From the NCBI RefSeq assembly GCF_024298765.1, contig NZ_CP101210.1: a DNA stretch of 64,000 nt; one strand, 5' to 3'. Numbering within the stretch: position 1 is the stretch's first letter; the number at the start of each line of letters is the position of its first letter. The DNA is from Escherichia coli (GTDB lineage: Bacteria > Pseudomonadota > Gammaproteobacteria > Enterobacterales > Enterobacteriaceae). Positions 30,354 through 31,810 of the stretch are shown one piece after another. The position numbers were made by a program, and so were the translations under genes. The notes under the pieces are model-generated. The model ran no database searches. It was not told the origin of the DNA and saw only the letters and a list, made by a program, of their open reading frames with translations.

Positions 30354-30412
30354 GCTATGATTAGCCGCTATTTTTTTGTCCTGAATGATGTTTGACACTA
30401 CCGAGGTGTACT

Positions 30413-31810
30413 ATTTTTACCCGAGTCGCTAATTTTTGCCGCAAGGTGCTAAGCCGCGAGGAAAGCGAGGCTGAACAGGCAGTCGCCCGTCCACAGGTGA
30501 CGGTGATCCCGCGTGAGCAGCATGCTATTTCCCGCAAAGATATCAGTGAAAATGCCCTGAAGGTAATGTACAGGCTCAATAAAGCGGGATACGAAGCCTG
30601 GCTGGTTGGCGGTGGCGTGCGCGACCTGTTACTTGGCAAAAAGCCGAAAGATTTTGACGTAACCACTAACGCCACGCCTGAACAGGTACGTAAACTGTTC
30701 CGTAACTGCCGCCTGGTGGGTCGCCGTTTCCGTCTGGCTCATGTGATGTTTGGCCCGGAGATTATCGAAGTTGCGACCTTCCGTGGACATCACGAAGGTA
30801 ACGTCAGCGACCGCACGACCTCCCAACGCGGGCAAAACGGCATGTTGCTGCGCGACAACATTTTCGGCTCCATCGAAGAAGACGCCCAGCGCCGCGATTT
30901 CACTATCAACAGCCTGTATTACAGCGTGGCAGATTTTACCGTCCGTGATTACGTTGGCGGCATGAAGGATCTGAAGGACGGCGTTATCCGTCTGATTGGT
31001 AACCCGGAAACGCGCTACCGTGAAGATCCGGTACGGATGCTGCGCGCGGTACGTTTTGCCGCCAAATTGGGTATGCGTATCAGTCCTGAAACCGCAGAAC
31101 CGATCCCTCGCCTGGCTACCCTGCTGAACGATATTCCACCGGCACGTCTGTTTGAAGAATCTTTGAAACTGCTGCAAGCGGGCTACGGTTACGAAACCTA
31201 TAAGCTGCTGTGTGAATATCACCTGTTCCAGCCGCTGTTCCCGACCATTACCCGCTACTTCACGGAAAATGGCGACAGCCCGATGGAGCGGATCATTGAA
31301 CAGGTGCTGAAGAATACCGATACGCGTATCCATAACGATATGCGCGTGAACCCGGCGTTCCTGTTTGCCGCCATGTTCTGGTACCCACTGCTGGAGACGG
31401 CACAGAAGATCGCCCAGGAAAGCGGCCTGACCTATCACGACGCTTTCGCGCTGGCGATGAACGACGTGCTGGACGAAGCCTGTCGTTCACTGGCGATCCC
31501 GAAACGTCTGACGACGTTAACCCGCGATATCTGGCAGTTGCAGTTGCGTATGTCCCGACGTCAGGGTAAACGCGCCTGGAAACTGCTGGAGCATCCTAAG
31601 TTCCGTGCGGCATACGACCTGTTGGCCTTACGAGCCGAAGTTGAGCGTAACGCTGAACTGCAACGTCTGGTGAAATGGTGGGGTGAGTTCCAGGTTTCCG
31701 CGCCACCAGACCAAAAAGGGATGCTTAACGAACTGGATGAAGAACCGTCACCGCGTCGCCGTACTCGTCGTCCACGCAAACGCGCACCGCGTCGTGAGGG
31801 TACCGCATGA
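30413..31810 (+). CDS. pcnB: Poly(A) polymerase I
   Basis: Nucleotidyltransferase ORF ([17 protein letters not shown]). No in-frame ATG near the N-terminus; a start at the ATT at 30413 gives the 465-aa form and matches the reported non-canonical AUU initiation. Confidence 0.85.

Follow-up and report, generated by a model that had tools for sequence, protein, structure and literature searches.

Poly(A) polymerase I (PAP I), the product of pcnB, adds poly(A) tails, which target bacterial RNAs for decay and control the copy number of ColE1-type plasmids. Excess PAP I is lethal. Translation of pcnB starts at an AUU codon, which limits PAP I synthesis, as concluded by Binns & Masters (2002, Mol Microbiol 44:1287–1298) and relayed in PMC2939334, PMC3561954, bioRxiv 10.1101/063800 and PMC5499595. 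PMC2939334, PMC3561954 and PMC9764084 attribute to the same study the placement of the N-terminus at the AUU and an increase in expression when the AUU was changed to AUG. PAP I is present at 30–50 molecules per cell and its overproduction is toxic (PMC3561954), and a ribosome-binding site described as poor has been held partly responsible for its low expression (PMC3561954, PMC9764084).

In E. coli, infC and pcnB are the only two genes with confirmed AUU or other non-canonical starts (Hecht et al., bioRxiv 10.1101/063800; PMC5499595). Initiation at AUU in reporter constructs reached 1–2% of that at AUG (Hecht et al.), and non-canonical start codons are rejected by IF3 (PMC5499595). The pcnB AUU is a standard case in which the start codon limits expression. 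Here we analyze this start as it is found in one 64,000-nucleotide stretch of E. coli DNA, referred to below in its whole length as the window. The ATT start of pcnB has been known since 2002, and its recognition in the window is correct but not new. Added to the published work are a comparison that takes in 80 species of Enterobacteriaceae, four relatives at a greater distance and 5424 genomes of E. coli, and the description of a Shine-Dalgarno sequence that looks strong.

The pcnB locus and its start region

Open reading frames and the RefSeq annotation of identical DNA revealed the plus-strand gene run sfsA-dksA-gluQRS-pcnB-folK-yadN within positions 28,000–33,000 of the window, which includes the enterobacterial order dksA-gluQRS-pcnB-folK. 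The 401 bases around the pcnB start were 100% identical to those of E. coli strain 104 and 99.5% identical to those of K-12 MG1655, and this region was matched in 5424 of 5426 complete E. coli genomes. Three of these 5424 matches sit on records labelled plasmid rather than chromosome. In a profile search, the protein translated from the ATT scored 997.1 bits against NCBIfam NF008634, the PcnB equivalog (cut-off 702 bits), with profile position 1 aligned to residue 1 of the protein; its score against TIGR01942 was 523, above the cut-off of 305.65. Residues 28–442 were identical to chain 3AQM_A of the E. coli PAP I crystal structure. The gene at 30413–31810 is E. coli pcnB, which encodes poly(A) polymerase I. 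The features of its start region and coding sequence are as follows.

30386–30388, plus strand: in-frame TGA that closes the pcnB frame upstream, 27 nt upstream of the ATT
30392–30394, plus strand: TTG in frame, start of the 472-aa model and first of the canonical starts after the TGA, probably unused; without a Shine-Dalgarno sequence and TTG in only 26 of 80 species
30403–30408, plus strand: GAGGTG, the Shine-Dalgarno sequence, separated from the ATT by 4 nt (by 6 nt when counted from the GAGG core); invariant in 80 of 80 species
30413–30415, plus strand: ATT, the non-canonical pcnB initiation codon (80 of 80 Enterobacteriaceae species and four more distant relatives; RefSeq CDS start; literature)
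30413–31810, plus strand: pcnB coding sequence, 465 aa from the ATT, stop included (ORF; NF008634, 997 bits; same span in RefSeq, WP_010723084.1)
30446–30448, plus strand: GTG codon 12, start of the 454-aa database versions; invariant in Enterobacteriaceae, without a Shine-Dalgarno sequence
30566–30568, plus strand: ATG codon 52, start of the 414-aa model, '+1(b)' in PMC2939334; ATG in only 23 of 79 species and CTC in 41 of 79
31807–31810, plus strand: ATGA, overlap of the pcnB stop with the folK start (ORF coordinates; RefSeq annotation)

The overlap of the pcnB stop with the ATG of folK suggests that translation of the two genes may be coupled. The neighboring gene gluQRS also has an ambiguous start site: its longest ORF begins with the ATG at 29427 (308 aa), and the RefSeq start is 30 nt downstream at 29457 (window 29427–29459).

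Across the pcnB start, the window reads ...cctgaTGAtgtTTGacactaccGAGGTGtactATTtttacccgagtcgctaatttttgccgcaagGTG..., and the start stretch itself reads tgaTGAtgtTTGacactaccGAGGTGtactATTtttacccgagtc.... A first-pass annotation of this DNA had proposed that the conserved N-terminus of PcnB is not preceded by an in-frame ATG, and the sequence bore this out, because the first in-frame ATG is codon 52 (30566–30568) and none precedes it in the window sequence. The positions that it gave for the TTG (30392) and the ATT (30413) were all correct. It had also described the frame as opening at the TTG; the TTG is where it was said to be, but the open frame begins one codon earlier, with the TGT at 30389 that directly follows the TGA. 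The ORF encodes 472 aa when counted from the TTG and 465 aa when counted from the ATT.

The sole strong Shine-Dalgarno sequence in the start region is the one that precedes the ATT. Its predicted pairing to the 3′ end of 16S rRNA amounts to -9.8 kcal/mol, similar to that of dksA (-9.2), and the values predicted before the rival starts were -2.3 for the TTG, -0.1 for GTG codon 12 and -4.0 kcal/mol for ATG codon 52. In its complementarity and its near-optimal spacing, the invariant pcnB GAGGUG looks strong rather than poor, at odds with the published description of the ribosome-binding site.

Two promoter elements lie upstream of the gene.

30137–30142, plus strand: TAAACT, identified in PMC2939334 as the -10 element of pS2, a sigma-S promoter, with start sites at 30148–30150
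30333–30361, plus strand: sigma-70-like promoter TTCTCA-17 nt-TATGAT, candidate for the major pcnB promoter pB

Transcription from pS2 starts at -263 to -265 from the ATT, with TAAACT as the -10 element (PMC2939334). Counting back from 30413 gives 30148–30150, 6–8 nt downstream of TAAACT, indicating that the ATT of that study is the ATT at 30413. The sigma-70-like site is the only promoter-like site in 30050–30600 and is a candidate for pB; its TATGAT block, GCTGAGCTATGATTAGCCGCTATTTTTT, is conserved in most of the 80 species. The TTG at 30392 also supplies the first three bases of TTGACA (30392–30397), a hexamer that matches the -35 consensus perfectly and is located 15 nt upstream of the ATT. 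A promoter that overlaps the start and uses this hexamer as its -35 box was rejected, as no acceptable -10 box is found at 16–18 nt. In the clinical strain E. coli YD786 (L083, 1689–2897), the annotation places a transposase gene of the IS4-like ISVsa5 family between gluQRS and pcnB, and similarity to the window is interrupted at ~30345, within the candidate pB promoter. This could alter pcnB transcription in that strain.

Conservation of the ATT and the rival start codons

The comparative sample consisted of the 80 closest pcnB loci, all from species of one family (Enterobacteriaceae), with PcnB 86–100% identical to the query. All 80 loci had ATT as codon 1 and, upstream of it at an unchanged distance, GAGGTG, and PcnB residues 2–12 were identical across all of the species compared. 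Within E. coli, the 60 nt around the start (30398–30457) were identical in 5416 of 5424 complete genomes, and the same stretch with the ATT changed to ATG had zero matches among the 5423 matched E. coli genomes. Conservation in 80 of 80 species and in 5416 of 5424 E. coli genomes indicates that the ATT at this position is not due to chance. The conserved N-terminal residues are out of reach of any conserved canonical in-frame start: E. coli has only the non-conserved TTG, which lacks a Shine-Dalgarno sequence, and 43 of the 80 loci have no ATG, GTG or TTG at all between the nearest upstream in-frame stop and the ATT.

These counts bear directly on a start at the upstream TTG (30392), which would give a 472-aa protein and reduce the ATT to an internal isoleucine codon. 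No other canonical start comes before the TTG in the open frame, the 472-aa form is found on at least 1000 contigs in public databases, and the codon at this position is TTG in 26 of the 80 species and ATG in two Salmonella subspecies. However, the TTG has no Shine-Dalgarno sequence (-2.3 kcal/mol), 43 of the 80 loci have no canonical start upstream of the ATT, and some species carry an in-frame stop between the TTG position and the ATT; in three of the 80, the upstream stop is just 15 nt before the ATT. The seven extra residues of the longer form are encoded by the Shine-Dalgarno sequence and its spacer and are not conserved as protein outside close relatives, and published work puts the start at the AUU (PMC2939334, PMC3561954). 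We therefore regard initiation at the TTG as extremely improbable.

In Salmonella enterica subsp. diarizonae and arizonae (L022, L023), the ATG at the position of the E. coli TTG is in frame, 21 nt upstream of the ATT (1501), and lacks a Shine-Dalgarno sequence. Salmonella PcnB is represented in databases by both 472-aa and 465-aa versions.

Distant homologs were collected by an exhaustive search of protein cluster representatives followed by DNA retrieval, which yielded a small sample outside Enterobacteriaceae. In four of these relatives, with 55–67% protein identity, the ATT is retained behind a GAGG-type Shine-Dalgarno sequence. GAGGTG followed by ATT was found in Candidatus Erwinia haradaeae (an endosymbiont with a 1.08-Mb genome; PcnB 62% identical), in genome CP043324.1 (67%) and in Thorsellia kenyensis (62%), and in a metagenome contig with 55% identity the ATT stands behind a GAGGAT motif. 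The changes in codons 2–12 of the four ATT-retaining relatives are synonymous or conservative, as would be expected of coding sequence. In four further homologs at 45–51% identity, an ATG or GTG start stands right at the same amphipathic N-terminal motif, such as MLIIKKLFKKIF and MIRKLIKVF, which indicates that the N-terminal residues of PcnB are real protein. From this small sample outside Enterobacteriaceae, the ATT start seems to belong to Enterobacterales and their near relatives and not to PcnB genes in general. We predict that the change from ATG to ATT arose once, at or close to the base of Enterobacterales.

Several other properties of these loci were observed. In CP043324.1 (L085, 1381–1510 and 1501–2998), the annotation splits pcnB into parts of 316 and 150 aa, suggestive of a frameshift or pseudogene, and the conserved promoter block GCGTGAGCTATG...GCCGCTATTTTTTGG is present twice upstream of the gene. 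In Thorsellia kenyensis, the GAGGTG is followed by two tandem in-frame ATT codons, and PcnB (L091, 965–1300) carries, after the N-terminal amphipathic motif and before the catalytic core, an insertion of ~65 residues with a high content of Lys, Arg and Ser.

The distant loci also bear on GTG codon 12 (30446) as the start. According to this alternative, the protein has 454 aa and the invariant 45 nt upstream of the GTG are an untranslated regulatory leader that is open in frame by chance. The GTG is invariant in 80 of 80 Enterobacteriaceae, the 454-aa form is widespread in databases, including O157 genome annotations, and the nucleotide conservation of codons 2–11 resembles that of a non-coding element more than that of a gene. 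On the other hand, the GTG lacks a Shine-Dalgarno sequence (-0.1 kcal/mol), and its equivalent is TTA in both Thorsellia and the metagenome locus (L090). Codons 2–11 of CP043324.1 differ from those of E. coli by three synonymous and three conservative changes without a frameshift, the amphipathic motif directly follows the ATG or GTG start in distant homologs, and the NF008634 profile covers residues upstream of codon 12. We give hardly any credence to a start at codon 12.

For ATG codon 52 (30566), the proposal is a different one. This codon was put forward as the pcnB start by Liu & Parkinson in 1989, according to PMC2939334, and Nadratowska-Wesolowska et al. (2010) suggested that, besides the AUU-initiated protein, a shorter isoform of 414 aa is made from it, on a message from the internal sigma-S promoter pS1. 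Such an isoform would be compatible with the AUU as the principal start. Activity of the promoter pS1 has been seen in vitro and, given special conditions, also in vivo, and anti-PAP I antibodies detected two bands on Western blots (PMC2939334); the 414-aa form is annotated on 39 contigs. Against it, codon 52 is ATG in only 23 of 79 species and CTC (leucine) in 41 of 79; being a leucine codon in most species, it is not a conserved start. The Shine-Dalgarno sequence before it pairs weakly (-4.0 kcal/mol) and does not leave enough distance to the ATG, and a protein starting at residue 52 would lose residues 28–51, which were retained in all three crystallised constructs (starting at residue 28 or 29). 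The authors themselves doubted the isoform, as pS1 needs unusual conditions (PMC2939334). We consider the 414-aa isoform very unlikely, and what codon 52 may yield is a minor, E. coli-specific product. As the main start of pcnB, the TTG at 30392, GTG codon 12 and ATG codon 52 were all rejected on the basis of Shine-Dalgarno strength and conservation, leaving the ATT at 30413–30415.

Synonymous variation and RNA structure near the start

Two segments of the coding sequence showed little synonymous variation.

30416–30448, plus strand: codons 2–12, with almost no synonymous variation as judged by third-position entropy; the 3′ part of an ultraconserved initiation block that begins at the Shine-Dalgarno sequence
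30518–30550, plus strand: codons 36–46, a second block with low synonymous variation, the second-lowest region in 78 species

Third-position entropy in codons 2–11 was 0.21 bits, compared with a gene-wide mean of 0.89 for codons with an invariant amino acid, and the 10-codon window from codon 1 had the lowest entropy of 430 in pcnB. In the second block, codons 41–43 (CGC AAA GAT) were invariant across 78 species. Reduced synonymous change near start codons is common. The degree of freezing in codons 2–11 is nevertheless notable, and the sequence context of the AUU could itself be under selection. Because the synonymous sites are frozen too, conservation of codons 2–12 within Enterobacteriaceae cannot by itself separate a coding constraint from an RNA constraint, and more distant orthologs are needed for this distinction.

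The minimum-energy fold joins the two frozen blocks through pairing of 30426–30439 with 30534–30549, and this helix was 99% paired across 76 sequences. No compensatory changes were found in the helix among the 76 sequences, in which eight cells that lose a standard pair are uncompensated on the partner side. With a z-score of -0.06, the fold of 30370–30560 was as stable as expected of shuffled sequence. One reading of the frozen sites is that 30401–30448 (the Shine-Dalgarno sequence through codon 12), perhaps together with 30518–30550, forms a cis-acting RNA element that sets or regulates the efficiency of the AUU, so that the start codon would be part of an undescribed conserved translational control module. 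We rate this as unlikely. If true, the element could make PAP I synthesis respond to growth rate or to how much IF3 is available, or it could be a binding site for a protein or a small RNA. The frozen synonymous block is the only part of the pcnB locus that might repay further work.

Initiation at AUU, its annotation and known systems

Taking these results together, translation of E. coli pcnB very probably starts at the non-canonical AUU at 30413–30415, which keeps PAP I scarce. Our own basis for this conclusion is the anatomy of the sequence, its conservation and the lack of an alternative start in most species, whereas use of the AUU and its limiting effect are taken from the literature. 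The first-pass annotation had named the ATT at 30413 as the initiator of the 465-aa PcnB, in agreement with the published AUU start, the 80 of 80 conservation and the predicted Shine-Dalgarno pairing of -9.8 kcal/mol. Its further claim that the ATT keeps poly(A) polymerase levels low is supported by the conclusion of Binns & Masters (2002), as relayed by later papers. A literature search for start-site ribosome profiling (retapamulin) of pcnB found none for E. coli and only a Staphylococcus paper.

A mechanism for this limitation can be proposed. The GAGGUG would bring the ribosome to the AUU (30413–30415), where the codon would pair imperfectly with the initiator tRNA. IF3 would then reject complexes of AUU and initiator tRNA, so that few of the ribosome-binding events would lead to protein. 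The low efficiency of the AUU would thereby hold PAP I at a few tens of molecules per cell, with excess being toxic. That IF3 discriminates against the pcnB mRNA in particular is what we infer by analogy with infC and from the general biochemistry of IF3.

The first-pass annotation had also expected automated annotation to mis-start pcnB. This is only partly the case. Four E. coli records were examined, and in each of them the RefSeq/PGAP coding sequence has the ATT as its first codon; the Swiss-Prot entry PCNB_ECOLI is the 465-aa form, so a blanket claim of mis-starting is outdated for E. coli. Wrong-start versions are nevertheless public: exact-sequence look-ups found the 472-aa (TTG) and 454-aa (GTG codon 12) forms on at least 1000 contigs each and the 414-aa form (ATG codon 52) on 39. 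Among the best 120 matches of a word-indexed protein search, all from Enterobacteriaceae, PcnB entries had lengths of 447, 454, 465 and 472 aa. For the Thorsellia kenyensis ortholog, PGAP chose as the start a GTG lying 12 codons downstream of the conserved GAGGTG-ATT. Gene finders limited to ATG, GTG and TTG give pcnB three different wrong N-termini that persist in databases in large numbers, and in relatives that have been studied less, such as Thorsellia, the ATT escapes even curated pipelines. These discrepancies change no biological conclusion.

The pcnB gene of the window corresponds to the E. coli pcnB described by Binns & Masters (2002) in gene, codon and proposed purpose, with no difference of substance. 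It resembles infC, the gene for IF3 with an AUU or AUC start, in having a conserved non-canonical AUU that limits translation, a codon of the kind that IF3 discriminates against (PMC5499595). The two genes differ in that infC is autoregulated, its own product being the discriminating factor, and IF3 is present at ~5500 molecules per cell (PMC5499595), whereas PcnB is scarce, at 30–50 molecules per cell (PMC3561954), and does not belong to the initiation factors. PcnB would at most passively sense IF3 activity. No feedback loop is known for PcnB. A further likeness is seen in ebpA of Enterococcus faecalis, for which PMC4447247 describes a rare ATT initiator that attenuates expression and an original annotation from a downstream ATG. 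It differs from pcnB in being an unrelated gene in a Gram-positive host.
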